NCBI GenBank assembly: GCA_965206595.1
Contig: OZ242214.1
Coordinates: 832,001-896,000, forward strand
Direction of reading: 5' to 3'
Source: Candidatus Latescibacterota bacterium
Lineage (GTDB): Bacteria > Latescibacterota > UBA2968 > UBA8231
DNA: 64,000 bases
Shown: piece by piece, positions 19,054 through 26,282 of the stretch
Position numbering within the stretch: position 1 is the first letter of the stretch
How the letters are laid out: each line of letters begins with the position of its first letter
Position numbers and translations under genes: made by a program
Notes under the pieces: model-generated
The model's database searches: none
Seen by the model: only the letters and a program-made list of their open reading frames with translations
What the model was told of the DNA's origin: nothing

Positions 19054-20204
19054 AGCCCCGTCAGACCCTGCTCGAAATCGGCGATCAGGTCGGCCGCGGA
19101 CTCAATGCCGACCGCCACCCGGACCAGGCCGCTGCGGATTCCCAGGGTCTGCCGTTCCGCTTCCGACAGGCCTGCGTGCGAAGTCGCTTCCGGCCGCGTG
19201 ATCAGGGTCTCGACACCTCCGAGGCTGGGGGCGAATGCCGGAATCCGCAGCCGCTCCAGCAGTTTCTCCGCTGCGGGCCTTCCCCCCTTAAGCTCGAAGC
19301 TCAGGACCCCGCCGCAGCCGGAGAACAGCCGCGCGGCGCGCTCGTGCTGGGCATGCGACACCAGCCCGGGGTAGTTCACCTGCGTCACCGCCTCGTAGCG
19401 TTCGAGCATCCCGGAAAGGGCCAACGCAGAGGCGTTCTGGTGCCGTACCCGTAGCGCCATCGTCTTCAATCCCCGGTGCAGCAGAAAACAGGCGTGCGGA
19501 TCGAGGGTGGCGCCGAGATGGTTGAGCCGGCGCCCGATCCGGGAGATCAGCTCCCCGCCGGCGACGACGCAGCCGGCGACGATGTCGGAGTGGCCGTTGA
19601 GATACTTGGTGGCGCTGTGAATCTCGACGTCGAACCCCAGTTGCAGCGGCCGGAAGTTGACCGGGGTTCCGAAGGTGTTGTCGATGATGGAGATCAGGCC
19701 GCGCTCGCGTGCGAACGCCACCACCGCTTCGAGATCGGCCACTTCCAGCAGCGGGTTGGTCATGGTCTCGAGGTAGATGGCGCGCGTTCGTCGGGTCGCC
19801 GCCTCATCCCAGGAGTCGGGGCGGTTGCAGTCGATGAAATCCGCCTGCAGCCCGAAGTCGGGGAGGTCGCCGGTGAACAGGCTGTGGGTGCCCCCGTACA
19901 GGCAGCTCTGCGCCAGCAGGCGGTCTCCCGCCTTCAGCAGTCCCATCAAGGTGGCGGCGATCGCCGCCATCCCCGAAGAGGTGACGATTGCGGCCTCGCC
20001 GCTGCAGACCGCGGCGAGCTTGTCGTGAAGGACGCGGTGATTGGGGCTGTTGTTGAGGCGCAGATAACGGATCTCCTCGTACGCCGTTTCCCCGCCCGAC
20101 AGGTAGGTGGCGCTCTGAAACACCGGCAGCACCACCGAGCCTTCGATCTTTTCCCCCTCTCCTGAATGGATGAGGTCGGTCTCGATATCGCGCTTTTTGT
20201 TCAT
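18984..20204 (-). CDS. Cys/Met metabolism PLP-dependent enzyme (cystathionine gamma-synthase/lyase or methionine gamma-lyase family)
   Basis: Start MNKKRDIETDLIH overlaps the upstream stop (ATGA). PVFQSATY, SSGMAAI, LYGGT, ETMTNP, DNTF, HSATKYLNGHSD (PLP lysine), SLGGVETL, VRVAVGIE. Confidence 0.93.
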   Translation of the reverse strand: MNKKRDIETDLIHSGEGEKIEGSVVLPVFQSATYLSGGETAYEEIRYLRLNNSPNHRVLHDKLAAVCSGEAAIVTSSGMAAIAATLMGLLKAGDRLLAQSCLYGGTHSLFTGDLPDFGLQADFIDCNRPDSWDEAATRRTRAIYLETMTNPLLEVADLEAVVAFARERGLISIIDNTFGTPVNFRPLQLGFDVEIHSATKYLNGHSDIVAGCVVAGGELISRIGRRLNHLGATLDPHACFLLHRGLKTMALRVRHQNASALALSGMLERYEAVTQVNYPGLVSHAQHERAARLFSGCGGVLSFELKGGRPAAEKLLERLRIPAFAPSLGGVETLITRPEATSHAGLSEAERQTLGIRSGLVRVAVGIESAADLIADFEQGLTGLQEFPPGSSGAAVSPEGLSSPPA

Positions 20205-22330
20205 GTCCGAAGCAGGTATTTGTCGAGGAGGTGTTGGTAGATGGCGACGAAGTCGCCGCGGCCGTTGCTGCGGTTGTAGAAGAAGCAGAACGGGTTGGGG
20301 TTGAGCTCGAGGATGCGCAGGCCCCCGGGGCCATCGATGACGTCGATGGCGTAGAACCCGAGCCGGATCACCGCGGCGACGCGCCGGGTGAGCTCGGTCA
20401 TCGCTGCAAGCAGCGGCCCGTCCCCGACCCTGACGGCGCGCCCGCTGGCGTGATGCAGGGGGTTGAGACCGCCTCCGACCTCGTCGCTGGTTTTCTCGTA
20501 GGCGAGCAGTAGCTCCGCTTCGCTGGCGACGATGCGGTACTCCACTCCCTCGACGAAAGCCTGGATCAGCAGGCTGTTGTCGAGAAAACCTCCGCCGGTG
20601 AACAGGTTCTCCAGGCGCCTCGCGGCCCCCTCGCGACAGCGCTCGAGGTAGACTCCCTGGGACACGGAGGCCCGCGGCTTCTTGATGAGCAGGGGATACT
20701 GCATGCGCTCTCCGAGGTCGTCGAGCATCTCTTCGACGCTGCCGTGGGTCTTGTAGCGGTGGAAGCGGTCGTCGGCGTACGGGTTGAACACCTGCATCGA
20801 GCAGGGGACCGGCAGGCCGGCGGCGGCGAACAGCTCGTACTGGTAGCCCTTGTCCTCTGCGAGCCTGGCGGCGGCGTAGTCGTTGAACGGGTGGCGGTTG
20901 CGCAGGAAATAGAACGGCCCTCCCGCCCCGTCGACCCGCAGGAGGTTGTCGTTGTCGGAGACTCTCTCGCACCGGAGGCTGCGGGCGCGGCAGGCGATTT
21001 CGACGCACTCGAGGCTTTCCAGGGCGACATCTTCGCTGATTCCCTCGGTTTCGCACGGGAGCCGGAAATGCTCGCGCGCGCGCGCGACCAGGGCCAGCGA
21101 TCCGGTGACGCAGACCGGCAGCTTGCCCGAGGCGGCGACCTCGAGGGCCCTGGCCAAGGGCTCGACGGTTGCGGGGACTTCTGCGGGGAGGTGGTTCAGC
21201 AGATCTTCGGGCGGCAGGGCCTTGGGGTGGCCGGAGGAGGTGGCGATCACCTGCCCGGCCAGCGGTGCCAGGCAGTCGAGGATGGCGCCGGCGTCGTGGC
21301 CGCTCCCGACGCCGACGACGAAGCGCCACTTCGGATGCAGGGCCCGAAGGTCCGCGGAGAGGCCTGCCGCGGCCGCCCGGTTGTGAGCGCCGTCAAGCAG
21401 GACCAGCGGCTTCCCGTCGCGCTCGACCGCCTCGAAGCGGCCCGGCCACTGGTGCCGGGCGATCGTCGCTTCCGCATCCGCGGGGACGAGGCGGTCCCCC
21501 AGCAGGAAGGCGGCCGCGGCCAGTGCCAGACGCGCGTTGGCCGGGTACGTGCCTGGCCTGCTGCCCTCCGACCGGGGGCAGGCCGGGTACGGCCCCCCGG
21601 GGCCGCAGCCCGAGGACTCGGCGCGGGTCACACCACCCGGGACCGCTGTGTAGAGAGGAACACTCGCGGACTGGCAGTGGTTGCGAATCCGCTCGGCGAC
21701 CCCGGCCTCGTGGGCATCGGTGGTGAACAGGGGCCGCCCCGGCCGCGTGATGCAGAGCTTGTCCGCGGTGATCTCCAGGACGTCCTCCCCCAGGACGTCG
21801 GCGTGGTCGACGGCGATGCTGGTCAGCACCGAGAGCTCGTGATCCCAGGCGTTGGTGGCGTCGTAGCGCCCCCCGAGACCGACCTCGAAAAGCGCGTAAT
21901 CGACCCCTGCGGCCGAGAACAGGTGCGCGGCGAGCGCGGTGAGCGCCTCGAATTTCGAGAAGCCGCCGAATCCCTCCTCGTCGAAGCGGCGGGTCGCGTC
22001 GTACAGGAAGGTCACCGCGTCGGCCCAGTCGTCCGGCCCCAGCAGCAGCCCGTCTACCTGGATGCGCTCCCGCTGGCTGTGCAGGTGGGGGGAGGTGTAG
22101 AGCCCGATCCTGCCGTCGCCGCGCAGCAGGGCCTCGAGGAGGCTGGCAACCGTGCCCTTGCCGTTGGTTCCACCGACGATTATCGAACGGAAGCCGTTCT
22201 GCGGATCCCCAAGCCGCCGCAGCAGCGCCCGGGTGCGGGGGAGGTAGTGGTGCAGGGGACCGGCAGGAGGGCGCCCCCGTTCCCAGTCGGGCAGGGTATC
22301 GAGGAATTTCCTGGCTTCTGAGTATTCCAT
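20201..22330 (-). CDS. folC: folylpolyglutamate synthase/dihydrofolate synthase fused to a C-terminal RimK-like ATP-grasp domain
   Basis: FolC part: GTNGKGT, GLYTSPHL, EVGLGGRYDATN, WPGRFE, LLDGAHN, VTGSL. ATP-grasp part: DKGYQYELF..AGLPVP, YPLLIKKP..SVSQGV, IQAFVEGVEYRI, AIDVI, ILELNPNP. One continuous frame. Confidence 0.85.
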   Translation of the reverse strand: MEYSEARKFLDTLPDWERGRPPAGPLHHYLPRTRALLRRLGDPQNGFRSIIVGGTNGKGTVASLLEALLRGDGRIGLYTSPHLHSQRERIQVDGLLLGPDDWADAVTFLYDATRRFDEEGFGGFSKFEALTALAAHLFSAAGVDYALFEVGLGGRYDATNAWDHELSVLTSIAVDHADVLGEDVLEITADKLCITRPGRPLFTTDAHEAGVAERIRNHCQSASVPLYTAVPGGVTRAESSGCGPGGPYPACPRSEGSRPGTYPANARLALAAAAFLLGDRLVPADAEATIARHQWPGRFEAVERDGKPLVLLDGAHNRAAAAGLSADLRALHPKWRFVVGVGSGHDAGAILDCLAPLAGQVIATSSGHPKALPPEDLLNHLPAEVPATVEPLARALEVAASGKLPVCVTGSLALVARAREHFRLPCETEGISEDVALESLECVEIACRARSLRCERVSDNDNLLRVDGAGGPFYFLRNRHPFNDYAAARLAEDKGYQYELFAAAGLPVPCSMQVFNPYADDRFHRYKTHGSVEEMLDDLGERMQYPLLIKKPRASVSQGVYLERCREGAARRLENLFTGGGFLDNSLLIQAFVEGVEYRIVASEAELLLAYEKTSDEVGGGLNPLHHASGRAVRVGDGPLLAAMTELTRRVAAVIRLGFYAIDVIDGPGGLRILELNPNPFCFFYNRSNGRGDFVAIYQHLLDKYLLRT

Positions 22331-22440
22331 CTTCTGACAGATCAGCGGCGGATGGCCGTCGCCCGGGGAGCGGCCTTCATGTCGCCGGGCATTCCCAGGC
22401 CCGGCCTGCACTGGAAATCCCGTCTCCGAGAGGGCTTCGG

Positions 22441-22583
22441 GGCGCGTCGCACACTGGTGTTTCCCACGCCTCAAAGAGCGCCGTCATCGGTCCGAATCCG
22501 TGCCGTTCGCCGTGAGGCGAACGGCCATCCGAGGCGCGTCGCACCCCGACAGTCCCCAACGCCTCAAAGAGCGCCGGCATCAT
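22441..22583. repeat. imperfect direct repeat (period about 92-93 bp) enclosing a GNRA hairpin, between moaA and folC
   Basis: GGCGCGTCGCAC at 22441 and 22533; ACGCCTCAAAGAGCGCCG at 22466 and 22559; GCCGTTCGCC-GTGA-GGCGAACGGC at 22502-22525. Confidence 0.75.
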
Positions 22584-23623
22584 CCACCCCGGGTGTGCAT
22601 CTCGCGATGCGGATCGACCTTCAGCTCTTCGACGTGGTAGAGCGCCCCCCGCGTCGGCTCGTTCAGCCGCTCCTCGGCGCCGCGGTCCCTGCGGCCCTCC
22701 CAGACACGGCGGATCCGCGCGACCAGATCCCGGTGCGTCAGCCCGTCCCGCAGCCACTCGCGCAGGTTGTACCCCTCGTTGGCGTACAGGCAGAGGTACC
22801 ACATGCCGTCCGCGGTAACCCGGCTGCGGTCGCAGGTGGCGCAGAACGGCTCGGTGGTGGAGGCGATGATGCCGAAACATGTGCCGTCGGGCAGGAGGAA
22901 ACGCTCCGCCGGGGCCGCTCCCCGGCCCGGGGCGGCCTCGATGGCGCCGTAGTGCCCCTCCAACCGCGCGAGGATGTCCGCCTTCGAGAAGACCCGCTCC
23001 ATCGACCAGAGGGTCGCCCCGCCGACATCCATATACTCGATGAAGCGGACCTCGGCACCTACCTCCTTGCCGAACTCGATCAGGTCGACGAGCTCGTCGT
23101 CGTTGAACCTCCGCATGATGACGGTGTTGATCTTGATGTCGGAGAAGGCGACGCGGGCGGCCTCGCGGATGCCGGTGAGAACGCGGTCCAGGACCACCCG
23201 CCTGGTCAGGGTTTCGAAGCGGGCGGGATTGAGGGTGTCGAGACTCACCGTTACCCGGCTCAACCCTGCCTCGTGCAGCGGCTCGGCCCATTTGGCCAGC
23301 TGCGTCGCGTTCGTCGTCATTGCCAGGTCCTCGACCGCGGGGCGCCGGGCCAGCCGGGCGACGAGATCGACGAGGCCGCCGCGCAGCAGCGGTTCCCCGC
23401 CGGTGAGGCGAACCTTGTGCACCCCGAGCTCCCCGAAGACGTCGACGGTGCGCTCGATCTCGTCGAAGGAGAGGATGTCCTCTTTCGGCAGCCAGGTGTA
23501 ATCCTCCTCCGGCATGCAGTAGGCGCAGCGCAAGTCGCAGCGGTCGATGACGGAGAGGCGGAGACTTTCGAGGGGGCGGCCGAAGAGATCGTGGGCCGTG
23601 GCGCGGTGGGGGTGCGAGCTCAT
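22580..23623 (-). CDS. moaA: GTP 3',8-cyclase (molybdenum cofactor biosynthesis)
   Basis: LRLSVIDRCDLRCAYCMP (radical SAM CxxxCxxC), RLTGGEPL, RFIEYM, FCATCDRSR...CL and C-terminal RGG. Confidence 0.96.
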   Translation of the reverse strand: MSSHPHRATAHDLFGRPLESLRLSVIDRCDLRCAYCMPEEDYTWLPKEDILSFDEIERTVDVFGELGVHKVRLTGGEPLLRGGLVDLVARLARRPAVEDLAMTTNATQLAKWAEPLHEAGLSRVTVSLDTLNPARFETLTRRVVLDRVLTGIREAARVAFSDIKINTVIMRRFNDDELVDLIEFGKEVGAEVRFIEYMDVGGATLWSMERVFSKADILARLEGHYGAIEAAPGRGAAPAERFLLPDGTCFGIIASTTEPFCATCDRSRVTADGMWYLCLYANEGYNLREWLRDGLTHRDLVARIRRVWEGRRDRGAEERLNEPTRGALYHVEELKVDPHREMHTRGG

Positions 23624-23956
23624 GCAGTAGAAAAGGGATGAACAGCAGGTCGAGAACAGGGCGCCGCGAACCGGCCAGCTGCGCCGTTGAAGCGGTGATT
23701 TTCCCGCGGGTGGCTCATCGTTTTGGTGACCTTCCGGGTACCCGTCGAAAGAACCGTCCGGGCTGCTAAGTTGAGAAAGGACAGGAATATACGGACTGCC
23801 CCCGGGGCGGCAATCCGTTTGCGACCCCACCCGGAGGGGGGCATATTAGGTGCCCGTCAAGGGGGAACCTGGCGCATCCCGTCAAATCGGGCGGCGGCCG
23901 TTCCGCTGCGACGAATCCCCGTCCATCCCGGTTTCCCCACCTGCCGACGAAAGCCG

Positions 23957-24910
23957 ATGGCGAATCCCGAAACCGAGCGCCTCGAGAAGATGCTGCGCGA
24001 GCAGCAGTACGTCGCCGACCCCGCCATCGCCATGTCCCTTCACTTGGCGCGAACCCTGAACAAGCCGCTCCTGGTCGAGGGGCCGGCAGGGGTCGGGAAG
24101 ACCGAGATCGCCAAGGTGATGGCGCGCGCCCTCGACACCGACCTGATCCGTCTGCAGTGCTACGAGGGCCTCGACACCAGCACTGCCCTGTACGAGTGGA
24201 ACTACCAGCGCCAATTGTTGCAGATCCGCCTGGAGGAAGGGGGGGAGCGCAGCCTCGACGAGCGCCAGTCCCACATCTTCGGCGAGGCCTTCCTGCTCAA
24301 GCGGCCCCTGCTCGAGGCGATCACCCACCACCGGCCGCCGGTGCTGCTGATAGACGAGCTCGACCGCGCCGACGAGGAGTTCGAGTCGTTCCTGCTCGAA
24401 GTGCTGTCCGACTGGCAGATCTCGATCCCCGAGGTCGGCACCATCGCCGCGACCCACATCCCGCACGTGGTCATCACCTCCAATCGAACGCGCGAGCTGT
24501 CCGACGCCATCCGCCGGCGCTGCCTCTACCTGTGGATCGACTACCCCGGGTTCGACAAGGAGCTGGCGATCGTGCGCGGCAAGGTCGACGGTCTCGACGC
24601 GCAGCTTGCCGACCAGATCTGCCGCTTCATGGCGCTGGTGCGCCGGCAGAAGCTGGAGAAGGTGCCCGGTGTCGCCGAGACTCTGGACTGGGCCAAGGCC
24701 CTGGTCGCCCTGCACCGCAACCACCTCGACCCCGGGATCGTCGAGGAGACCCTCGGGGTGGTGTTCAAGGACTGGACGGACGTGCGCCAGATGCAGCAGA
24801 CCCTGCCCGAGTTCCTCGAAGAGCTCGGCATCCGCGCCAAGGCCCCTCCCGGAACGGGGCAGGCCCAGGAGGCGGGGCAGCCCGCTGCGGGGACCCCCGG
24901 TGGCGGATAA
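23957..24910 (+). CDS. MoxR-type AAA+ ATPase (CoxD-like)
   Basis: LLVEGPAGVGKTE, RLQCYEGLD..ALYEWNYQRQ, LLIDELDRADEEFE, ELSDAIRRRC, PGVAETLDW. Confidence 0.92.
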   Translation: MANPETERLEKMLREQQYVADPAIAMSLHLARTLNKPLLVEGPAGVGKTEIAKVMARALDTDLIRLQCYEGLDTSTALYEWNYQRQLLQIRLEEGGERSLDERQSHIFGEAFLLKRPLLEAITHHRPPVLLIDELDRADEEFESFLLEVLSDWQISIPEVGTIAATHIPHVVITSNRTRELSDAIRRRCLYLWIDYPGFDKELAIVRGKVDGLDAQLADQICRFMALVRRQKLEKVPGVAETLDWAKALVALHRNHLDPGIVEETLGVVFKDWTDVRQMQQTLPEFLEELGIRAKAPPGTGQAQEAGQPAAGTPGGG

Positions 24911-26282
24911 GCCGTCCAACGGCCGGAGACCGGCCGGACTGGAGGACCTCGCCCTGCGTGGAGAGCTGAGCGCCAACGTCGTCGGCTTCTGCCGGCTGCT
25001 GCGCCGCGAGGGAGCCGGCCCCGGGGCGGCCGAGGCCGCCGACGCCCTGCTCGCCCTGGAGCGGATCGACCTCCGAACCGGGCAGCATTTCTACGAAGCC
25101 CTCAGAACCTGCCTCGCCAAGAGCCGCCCGGAGCAGGATATCTTCGACTCCGTGTTCGACTCCTACTGGAAGGTCTGGGACCGCGCCGGCGAGCTTCTGC
25201 GGGGGCAGGGGGCGCGGGAAGAGGAGGAAAACAGGGAGATCCGCAATCCGTGCGCACCGGAGCAGCAGCCGGCGCTGAGAGCGGTCACCGCCTGGCTCAA
25301 GGGAGAGAAGAAGACCGGCGACGAGGAGCCTGCCCCGGGATACAGCCCGTTCGAGGTGATGGCCCGTCGCGACTTCGCCGGCTTCCGCGCCGACGAGCTC
25401 GACGAGATCGGCCATCTGGTCACCCTCATCGCCCGGATGCTCGCCAGGCGCTTCAACCGCCGCTACCGCGACAGCTCCCGCCGCGGCCGCCTCGACCTGC
25501 GACGCACCCTCAGGCGCAATCTCCGCCGTGGCGGAGAGCTCGTCGATCTCAGCTTCAGGCAGCGCCGCCGCCGGCGCCTGAAGCTGGTCCTGCTGTGCGA
25601 CGTCAGCCGCTCGATGGACCTCTACAGCAGCTTCCTCATCCAGTTCGTCTACGCCTTCCAGCTCGCCTGCCGGCGCGTCGAGACCTTCGTCTTCAGCACC
25701 TCCCTGCGGCGGGTCACCGACACCCTGGCCAACGAGGACCTCGACGAGGTGCTGGCCGCGCTCTCCCGGGAGGTGCCGCAGTGGTCGGGGGGCACGCGCA
25801 TCGGCGCCTCCCTGCAGACGTTTCTCGACGGCTTCGGCGACGCCCTGCTCGACCACCAGACCGCGGTCATCCTGCTGAGCGACGGCTGGGACACCGGCGA
25901 TATCGACCTGTTGCGCGATACCATGCGCGACATCCACCGCCGCTCCCTGGCGGTGATCTGGCTCAACCCGCTGCTCGGCTCCGAGGAGTACCGCCCCGAC
26001 ACCCGCGGCATGCGCGCCGCCCTGCCCCACGTCGATCTGTTCGCCCCGGCCCACAACGCCGCCAGCCTCAAGGAGCTGGCCTCCGTCCTGGGGCGCATCC
26101 AGCGCCGCGACATCCCGGCCCGTTTCGGGTTCCACCAGCGAGAGGAGGTGGAGGTCGAGGAAACCGAGCCGTCGGTGGCGCCGGAAGAGGCCCCGAGGCC
26201 GAGCACGGCCGCCAACCTCGAGCGGCTCGCCCGCGAGATGCAGGAGAAGCGGCAGCGCCGCCAGGATCAGGCGTCGGCCTGA
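24900..26282 (+). CDS. VWA domain protein (CoxE-like)
   Basis: GTG start overlapping the ATPase end; LDLRRTLR, LCDVSRSM (MIDAS), WSGGTRIG, LSDGWDTG, IWLNP, GMRAALPHVD. Confidence 0.9.
   Translation: MADKPSNGRRPAGLEDLALRGELSANVVGFCRLLRREGAGPGAAEAADALLALERIDLRTGQHFYEALRTCLAKSRPEQDIFDSVFDSYWKVWDRAGELLRGQGAREEEENREIRNPCAPEQQPALRAVTAWLKGEKKTGDEEPAPGYSPFEVMARRDFAGFRADELDEIGHLVTLIARMLARRFNRRYRDSSRRGRLDLRRTLRRNLRRGGELVDLSFRQRRRRRLKLVLLCDVSRSMDLYSSFLIQFVYAFQLACRRVETFVFSTSLRRVTDTLANEDLDEVLAALSREVPQWSGGTRIGASLQTFLDGFGDALLDHQTAVILLSDGWDTGDIDLLRDTMRDIHRRSLAVIWLNPLLGSEEYRPDTRGMRAALPHVDLFAPAHNAASLKELASVLGRIQRRDIPARFGFHQREEVEVEETEPSVAPEEAPRPSTAANLERLAREMQEKRQRRQDQASA

Follow-up and report, generated by a model that had tools for sequence, protein, structure and literature searches.

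FolC builds gamma-glutamyl links on pteroate and folate, and to our knowledge the tail of folate is regarded as a gamma-polyglutamate with FolC as its sole maker. In the stretch of Latescibacterota DNA analysed here (64,000 nucleotides, hereafter the window), a folC gene runs in frame into a domain with the fold of an ATP-grasp ligase, which raises the question of what a second ligase would do on the end of a folate enzyme. A sequence-only reading of this DNA had proposed mixed-linkage or capped folates, or a new amino-acid polymer. The features discussed below are collected in Table 1.

Table 1. Location and basis of the features at the folC fusion locus (positions in the window).
Feature	Position	Strand	Basis
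FolC / ATP-grasp fusion gene, 709 aa	20201..22330	(-)	translation, profile matches, relatives' loci, junction-spanning contigs
FolC (DHFS/FPGS) module, residues 1-423	21062..22330	(-)	TIGR01499, fold, homologue alignment
H345 of fused FolC	21296..21298	(-)	His in 119/119 fusions, Lys in 12/12 unfused FolC compared
Link, residues 424-431 (8 residues)	21038..21061	(-)	homologue alignment
ATP-grasp domain, residues 432-709	20204..21037	(-)	fold match, residue alignment
ELNPNP (E675-x-N677) motif, residues 675-680	20291..20308	(-)	translation; aligned to RimK EVN
moaA, upstream neighbour	22580..23620	(-)	TIGR02666 above cut-off
Cys/Met metabolism PLP enzyme (PF01053), 406 aa	18984..20204	(-)	profile match

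The gene translates as a single frame with no internal stop, and the division into a complete FolC of about 425 residues followed by an ATP-grasp domain of about 280, as first described, held. The spacing from R419 to E433 is 15 residues in 119/119 homologues. Near position 21050 the junction is crossed without an indel by a contig of run X1 and by a contig of run X4, two runs that come from different samples and different studies. X4 is near-identical to the window and X1 contains every sampled word of it, so either run may be the origin of the window's DNA, and the independent support for the junction is therefore that of the relatives' loci. Out of 81 loci (80 relatives and the window), 80 have the whole fusion as a single frame, while the remaining one begins at a contig edge; none of the 81 showed a split form. 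Together the spanning contigs, the fused loci and the distribution across genomes rule out an assembly or frameshift artefact. No RNA run was listed among those that contain the window sequence. The predicted full-length model had a pTM of 0.85, which we did not count as a domain interface, and a predicted complex of the two halves (score 0.01, mark 0.32) speaks neither for nor against one.

Of 168 Latescibacterota genomes, 123 contain the ATP-grasp domain, each as a single copy, and all 123 belong to three families within one class: 70/75 in family f1 plus the window's genome, 31/31 in f2 and 21/22 in f4. None of the 39 genomes from other Latescibacterota families had the domain, and no stand-alone copy next to folC was seen in these sister families. 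Among 41 relatives there were five misses and one partial match: G003 (the partial match) and G017 stop at contig edges, G024 and G026 have no folC over the cut-off, and in G028 and G030 FolC is unfused. The fusion is thus real and clade-wide, and it is fixed in the three families. Because the fused sequences form one clade, they point to one evolutionary event, and the 123 genomes do not amount to 123 votes. Plasmids yielded two weak matches and viral contigs yielded none.

The N-terminal module is a FolC by profile and by fold. Residues 30-420 scored 250.2 bits against TIGR01499 (cut-off 162.65, model positions 1-398 of 400), and the two-domain Mur-ligase fold found FolC as its best match in Foldseek, where the top 17 rows were all FolC/FPGS (E 9e-29). 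It has the fold, the P-loop (GTNGKG, residues 54-59) and the core residues in common with the solved enzymes of E. coli (PDB 1w78), M. tuberculosis (2vos), T. maritima (1o5z) and L. casei (FPGS, 1jbw). K58, E149, D157, D175, H176, K191, R298, D313 and H316 are invariant in 119/119 homologues, and across the same set the P-loop Lys, the SPH loop, the EVGxGG Glu, DH, the modified-Lys position, PGR, DGAHN and GS, which we take to be the functional motifs of FolC, are invariant or nearly so. A search for a second folC found none: the fused gene is the only folC match in the window's genome, which is 92.9% complete. There was one folC locus per genome in 39/41 genomes (in one case split over two contigs), and a second FolC, 33% identical, occurred in just one of 70 genomes, G167, which has 8% contamination. 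Since folE, folK, folP and folA are also present, the fused FolC is the housekeeping copy. No motif tells mono- from bifunctional DHFS/FPGS enzymes, according to the available sections of PMC1971073.

Compared with known FolC, the fused protein differs in more than its 278-residue C-terminal addition. Its identity to unfused FolC from the same phylum is 29-37%, and fused modules score 252-297 bits against TIGR01499, where unfused FolC from the same class reaches 361-391. EKAGIIK has become DKLxIxR, and the GxHQxxN motif is gone save its Asn. At position 345, where the four solved enzymes that we aligned have the Lys of the C-domain DK motif, presumably glutamate-binding, the fused clade has His. 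This clade-specific divergence fits co-adaptation with the ATP-grasp domain; it could alternatively stem from a fast-evolving lineage. On the boldest reading, the remodelled FolC (His at 345) would produce dihydrofolate and no more than a short gamma tail, with the ATP-grasp domain building or capping the rest in alpha-linked or non-glutamate form, a division of labour that we consider unlikely.

The C-terminal domain was harder to place. Residues 482-680 scored 31.8 bits against TIGR00768 (rimK_fam, cut-off 143.4), where the best fused relative reached 61.7 and the stand-alone member P0161 75.1, and the domain scored 16.2 bits against PF08443 (cut-off 21). With these scores below both cut-offs, the ATP-grasp assignment rests on the fold: the model (pLDDT 94.3) matched ArgX at Z 21.9 over 245 residues (rmsd 2.9), LysX/ArgX at 21.6 and RimK at 19.7. 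The family of RimK, LysX, ArgX, CofF and MptN provides the closest folds, and its ATP-, metal- and carboxylate-binding residues align with those of the fused domain. The domain nevertheless has only about 20% identity to this family, has an N-terminal part about 30 residues shorter than the RimK N-terminal domain, and carries an insertion of its own, NPxADxRFxRYKTH, and an NPLH motif.

The weak similarity to curated ATP-grasp families would suit a non-catalytic or regulatory appendage, for ATP sensing or oligomerisation, on an ordinary FolC. We regard this as highly improbable. K494, K550, E597, R599, D663, E675 and N677 do not vary among the 119 fusions or the 124 stand-alone relatives; these seven catalytic positions include the carboxylate-binding Arg and both residues of the ExN motif, which we take to be metal-binding and which proved as intact as first claimed. 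Q590, aligned to the Q/E hinge position of RimK, is invariant in 119/119 fusions. The ATP-grasp part is conserved at least as well as FolC, with a mean pairwise identity of 0.60, where the two FolC domains reach 0.58 and 0.55. Further invariant residues of the ATP-grasp domain are R477, R522, R525, H529, K613, H626 and R691.

Whether the domain would use glutamate is a separate matter. In the available text of PMC10375531 and PMC10092738, R189 and N262 of RimK are the carboxylate-binding Arg and Asn, and its glutamate is bound by the arginines R64, R96, R98 and R102. By alignment R189 corresponds to R599 and N262 to N677, both invariant in the fusions. In a sequence alignment with the RimK of G031, R96, R98 and R102 fall on L490, E492 and Y496, and the R64 segment is missing. 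The glutamate-binding arginines are not kept, so that glutamate as the amine donor is not predicted from the sequence. Far under the cut-off and devoid of these arginines, the domain does not belong to RimK. The earlier argument that a RimK-like domain would add alpha-glutamate is thereby weakened.

The domain derives instead from an uncharacterised stand-alone family, of which we collected 1,658 representatives at E<=0.001; the commonest taxa of its Atlas clusters are Cyanobacteriota, Saccharimonadota and Pseudomonadota. Sister to the fused clade is a group of 13 stand-alone proteins (support 0.92), and among 124 stand-alone proteins 8 to 14 carry the fusion-typical R477, N623, N679, C682, N686 and R691, so that these motifs are older than the fusion. 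In 80 stand-alone loci (together 567,748 bases, with many short contigs) there was no folC and no common neighbour, and one locus had folA about 3 kb off. Of 3 clostridial folC loci, a small sample, none had an adjacent ATP-grasp gene. A search for other fusions among longer proteins gave none at E<=1e-10, a weak search that did not recover the FolC fusions themselves.

This origin bears on a rival that we find possible, if the lesser prospect: the ATP-grasp domain may have landed behind folC, where the loss of a stop codon joined the two, and may keep the ancestral job of its stand-alone family, probably the addition of amino acids to a protein C-terminus or the synthesis of a small peptide with no bearing on folate, with separate selection on the two activities. 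Besides the widespread relatives, the missing folC neighbours and the older motifs, it is favoured by the best fold matches, ArgX, LysX and RimK, which all act on protein C-termini, and by the scarcity of canonical RimK, above cut-off in only 3/41 genomes and not found in the window's genome. It sits badly with the fusion itself, which was never split in 81 loci and kept a constant link length despite neighbourhood rearrangements between families. Nor does any partner or substrate gene travel along; LysW was not found in 5 genomes by a search whose control was positive in 4/14, and LysX_arch scored 15.7 bits against a cut-off of 275.6. We note that a plausible S6 was present at 2 of 4 loci where S6 C-termini were inspected, one with an acidic run at its end.

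The neighbouring genes had been read as fitting pterin, C1 or sulfur metabolism. Both are indeed present here: moaA ends 250 nt from the fusion gene, and the TGA stop of the fusion overlaps the ATG of the PLP gene (ATGA, 20201-20204). The arrangement is not universal, however. Among 80 related loci, moaA is present in 58 and missing from 22; the PLP gene lies directly downstream in 38 and is missing from 33. Twelve other loci are found close to folA instead, and other members sit near folA/thyA. We accordingly rejected moaA and the PLP enzyme as general functional partners.

Other substrates were considered through their marker genes. CofF and MptN are listed as the ligases that add alpha-glutamate to F420 and to methanopterin, respectively (PMC3249071, in the part available); the F420 markers CofD and CofE were not found in the 1 and 5 genomes checked, respectively, nor the methanopterin marker Mch in 1. 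GCS2 was found in only 20/41 genomes and the glutamate-cysteine ligase PF04262 in none of 5, and a glutathione synthetase role was set aside on these counts.

ATP-grasp domains joined to a second amide ligase are known from CphA1 (TIGR02068) and GshF, and the fold matches included CphA2 (Z 15.4) and GshF (Z 15.9). In GshF the partner is a glutamate-cysteine ligase rather than FolC, and in CphA the ATP-grasp domain precedes a Mur-type domain other than FolC, the reverse of the order here. Because cyanophycin synthetase combines the same two folds, because RimK gives free poly-alpha-glutamate in vitro (available text of PMC10375531), and because both modules match CphA models weakly (21.1 bits for TIGR02068, and 17.8), the two modules might make a free polymer, mixed alpha/gamma-polyglutamate or cyanophycin-like, besides glutamylating folate. 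We think this quite improbable. The CphA scores lie far under their cut-offs, 850 and 877, and the domain order is the reverse; score and fold alike make the Mur-type module a FolC, and it is the sole folC; and a scan of the neighbours turned up no conserved gene for a hydrolase or exporter. Beyond the common folds, nothing was found in favour of a cyanophycin-like polymer.

With no F420 or methanopterin marker found, the folate tail is the best guess for the substrate, and we put the chance that the ATP-grasp domain extends or caps it at about even. By prediction, pteroate and folate receive their first and gamma-linked glutamates from the FolC module. The ATP-grasp module would then use ATP to activate a carboxylate on the folate glutamate tail, presumably as an acyl-phosphate at R599, the equivalent of RimK R189, and would add one more amino acid, an alpha-linked glutamate or another residue. 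This role is favoured by the fixation of the fusion, the conservation of the ATP-grasp part, the sole folC, the missing markers for other substrates, the precedents and the apparent co-adaptation of FolC. It is weakened by the stand-alone origin away from folC, the single event, the lost arginines and the lack of folC pairing in sister families. Of the mixed-linkage or capped folates first proposed, the folate part thus survives and the alpha-glutamate part is weakened.

The closest functional analogy to a role on the folate tail is MyfA/MyfB (OrfY/Orf5), ATP-grasp enzymes that lengthen the polyglutamate tail of the methylofuran coenzyme (PMC8141765, as far as its available text goes). These are stand-alone proteins in methanopterin-linked C1 clusters, whereas Mch was not found in the window's genome. 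Alpha linkages have been reported in the distal folate tail of E. coli (available sections of PMC1971073); this folylpoly-alpha-glutamate activity would give the product proposed here, and its link to the ATP-grasp family is by analogy only. In the main texts of the open-access literature we found no naming of the gene for it, nor any description of a FolC / ATP-grasp fusion, in line with the sequence-only reading.

As a candidate for a second folate-tail chemistry, the fusion has the merit of lying in one gene and being open to direct test, and it gives a first way into the function of an uncharacterised ATP-grasp family that comprises over a thousand sequence clusters. Should the modules prove independent, it would merely be a clade marker of three Latescibacterota families. 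If the division of labour between a remodelled FolC and the ATP-grasp domain is true, these bacteria would make a folate species so far undescribed, the first gene family would be named for alpha-tailing of folate, and the same job would be suggested for the stand-alone members from cyanobacteria and from bacteria with small genomes.

The open frame encoding FolC followed by an ATP-grasp domain, first proposed from sequence alone, was borne out. Runs X1 and X4, from two samples of two studies and either one possibly the assembly's source, each had contigs crossing the junction without indels, and runs X5 and X10 covered it only piecewise. The C-terminal domain had 252 matches among proteins of 389-1241 aa. 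Out of the 120 matches listed, 119 measured 678-784 aa, all with Mur-ligase Pfam domains, and the organism-named proteins were from Latescibacteria except for one from Gemmatimonadetes. The 28 shorter matches were of varied length and came largely from short contigs, a pattern that fragments would give. Taking the window together with the best 80 of 112 genome loci, 80 of 81 carried the full in-frame fusion; the exception starts at a contig edge.

Features of the fusion locus, with one locus from another genome
Feature	Position	Strand	Remarks
FolC/ATP-grasp fusion gene	20201-22330	minus	one open frame, 709 codons
moaA	250 nt upstream of fusion gene
Cys/Met PLP enzyme gene	downstream of fusion gene		start overlaps fusion's stop as ATGA
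Two copies of ~50-nt unit	22438-22581		92-93 nt apart; occupy moaA-folC gap
AAA ATPase + VWA_CoxE pair (Pfam)	23723-26282		divergent from moaA
Second FolC, locus L208	G167:C5, 962-3172		different type, 33% identical; near contig start

A TIGR-type FolC model matched residues 30-420 of the product (NCBIfam, 250.2 bits against a cut-off of 162.65), while the RimK-family match was weak (residues 482-680, 31.8 bits against 143.4); Pfam agreed, with Mur_ligase_C above its cut-off and RimK below. AlphaFold modelled both the whole protein (pLDDT 91.8) and the C-terminal domain alone (pLDDT 94.3) with confidence. All top 17 Foldseek matches of the former were FolC/FPGS. The ATP-grasp model matched ArgX (Z 21.9, rmsd 2.9, 245 residues), LysX/ArgX (Z 21.6) and RimK (Z 19.7), with D-Ala-D-Ala ligases lower, at 18.2 and below. 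Both folds are already known.

We found the domain in 123 of 168 Latescibacterota genomes, one copy each: 70 of 75 in family f1, plus the window's own genome, 31 of 31 in f2 and 21 of 22 in f4. It was found in 0 of 39 genomes from eleven other families, including f3 of the same class; those of the other families that were checked had an unfused FolC. Three clostridial folC loci that we inspected had no ATP-grasp neighbour. The fused sequences (15 sampled) formed one clade with support of 1.0; by this phylogeny, therefore, the fusion arose once, long ago, and was retained afterwards.

Neither tblastn nor a profile search, the check proposed earlier, found a second FolC in the window's genome, which has folK, folA and folE. 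FolC matched at E<=1e-20 in 39 of 41 relatives, at a single locus each (one split across two contigs), and folP exceeded its cut-off in 36 of 41. Core FolC residues were invariant across 119 homologues, and the fused FolC is the genome's housekeeping folC. Genome G167 carries the fusion as well as the second FolC at L208, and has 8% contamination. A search with PF01227 found no FolE in G035, G090 and G107 (f2 and f4 genomes), which have folA.

Despite this housekeeping status the fused FolC is remodelled. Its scores of 252-297 bits fall short of the 361-391 reached by unfused f3 FolC (full-length matches), and it shared 29-37% identity with unfused FolC of the phylum. Position 345 was His in 119 of 119 fusions and Lys in 12 of 12 unfused FolC compared, as at the equivalent position of the solved T. 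maritima, M. tuberculosis, Y. pestis and L. casei enzymes. The replaced Lys presumably binds the incoming glutamate. Passages in PMC10861534, PMC2877875 and PMC12371491 do not name this residue.

The ATP-grasp domain was at least as well conserved as its partner: mean pairwise identity was 0.60, and the two FolC domains reached 0.58 and 0.55. The spacing from R419 to E433 was 15 residues in 119 of 119 homologues. K494, K550, E597, R599, D663, E675 and N677 were kept without exception in the 119 fusions and in all 124 stand-alone relatives. The domain is thus under strong selection and looks active, and this invariance in the fusions makes a non-catalytic appendage very improbable. In an alignment to a canonical RimK from G031, numbered one lower than E. 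coli's, R599 and N677 corresponded to R189 and N262, which according to PMC10375531 and PMC10092738 lie at the carboxylate of the acceptor. The glutamate-binding R96, R98 and R102 were instead L490, E492 and Y496, and some 30 RimK residues, R64 among them, were missing. The domain likely works as a RimK/LysX-type carboxylate-amine ligase, judging by these residues, yet by its scores it does not belong to the RimK family. The sequence-only reading of a RimK-like alpha-glutamate ligase is therefore supported by the catalytic residues and weakened by the far-sub-threshold RimK match and the lost arginines; glutamate as the amine donor cannot be read from the sequence.

That reading had also argued for pterin/C1/sulfur metabolism from moaA and the PLP gene. 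We found moaA in 58 of 80 fusion loci (<=400 nt away in 57) and the PLP gene in 47, immediately downstream in 38. Twelve loci without moaA carried folA on the opposite strand, 2 to 4 kb upstream, next to thyA and a radical SAM gene of the MiaB/RimO type, and further loci had unrelated neighbours. With neighbours varying in this way, the argument reduces to synteny inside one family. The moaA-fusion gap is <60 nt in most relatives, and no further copies of its ~50-nt unit were found elsewhere in the genome. XdhC and MobA-like genes adjoin the AAA ATPase/VWA_CoxE pair in related loci, an ordinary molybdoenzyme maturation cluster.

A profile search retrieved 1,658 representatives at E<=0.001 and 93 at 1e-30; among 150 listed, 124 were stand-alone proteins of 250-330 aa. 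All 92 scanned matched TIGR00768, the displayed member P0161 below cut-off (75.1 bits). Atlas look-alike clusters came most commonly from Cyanobacteriota, Saccharimonadota, Pseudomonadota and others. In a FastTree phylogeny rooted on RimK, thirteen stand-alone proteins were sister to the fused clade with support of 0.92. P0150-P0293 and loci L101-L180 represent a large uncharacterised stand-alone ATP-grasp family of ~275 aa that has an NLSPLH motif, keeps its catalytic residues invariant and lacks conserved neighbours; P0179, P0203, P0236 and P0278 have 80-100 additional N-terminal residues. The genes occur as tandem pairs in L146, L148 and L179, and in just three related loci, L104, L140 and L142, lie two genes upstream of a pair we take from its sequence to be rpsF-ssb.

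We examined 80 stand-alone loci from a more distant subgroup, retrieved with 29 sequences sharing one motif, many on short contigs. None contained folC, no neighbour was common to all (the largest cluster occurred in 17), and one had folA ~3 kb away. These loci weigh most heavily against a role in folate metabolism, and they favour the domain being a protein or peptide ligase unrelated to folate and fused through adjacency, which we consider possible but somewhat doubtful.

Among markers of other candidate substrates, neither CofD nor Mch was found in the window's own genome (92.9% complete), nor CofE or LysW in five genomes, with controls as expected. No PF04262 match turned up in five genomes, GCS2 was patchy (20 of 41 relatives), and 3 of 41 had a canonical RimK above its cut-off. 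Among polyglutamylated cofactors, we found a pathway for folate alone. That the fusion makes a free polymer is unlikely.

Our search of the open-access literature yielded no description of a FolC-ATP-grasp fusion. The alpha linkages reported for E. coli folate tails (PMC1971073), MyfA/MyfB acting on methylofuran (PMC8141765) and CofF/MptN (PMC3249071) serve as precedents for the mechanism proposed below. The fusion is real and open to testing. In our preferred reading, to which we give even odds, FolC would make dihydrofolate and gamma-glutamyl folates, and the tethered domain would phosphorylate a tail carboxylate at R599/E675/N677 and attach one more amino acid.
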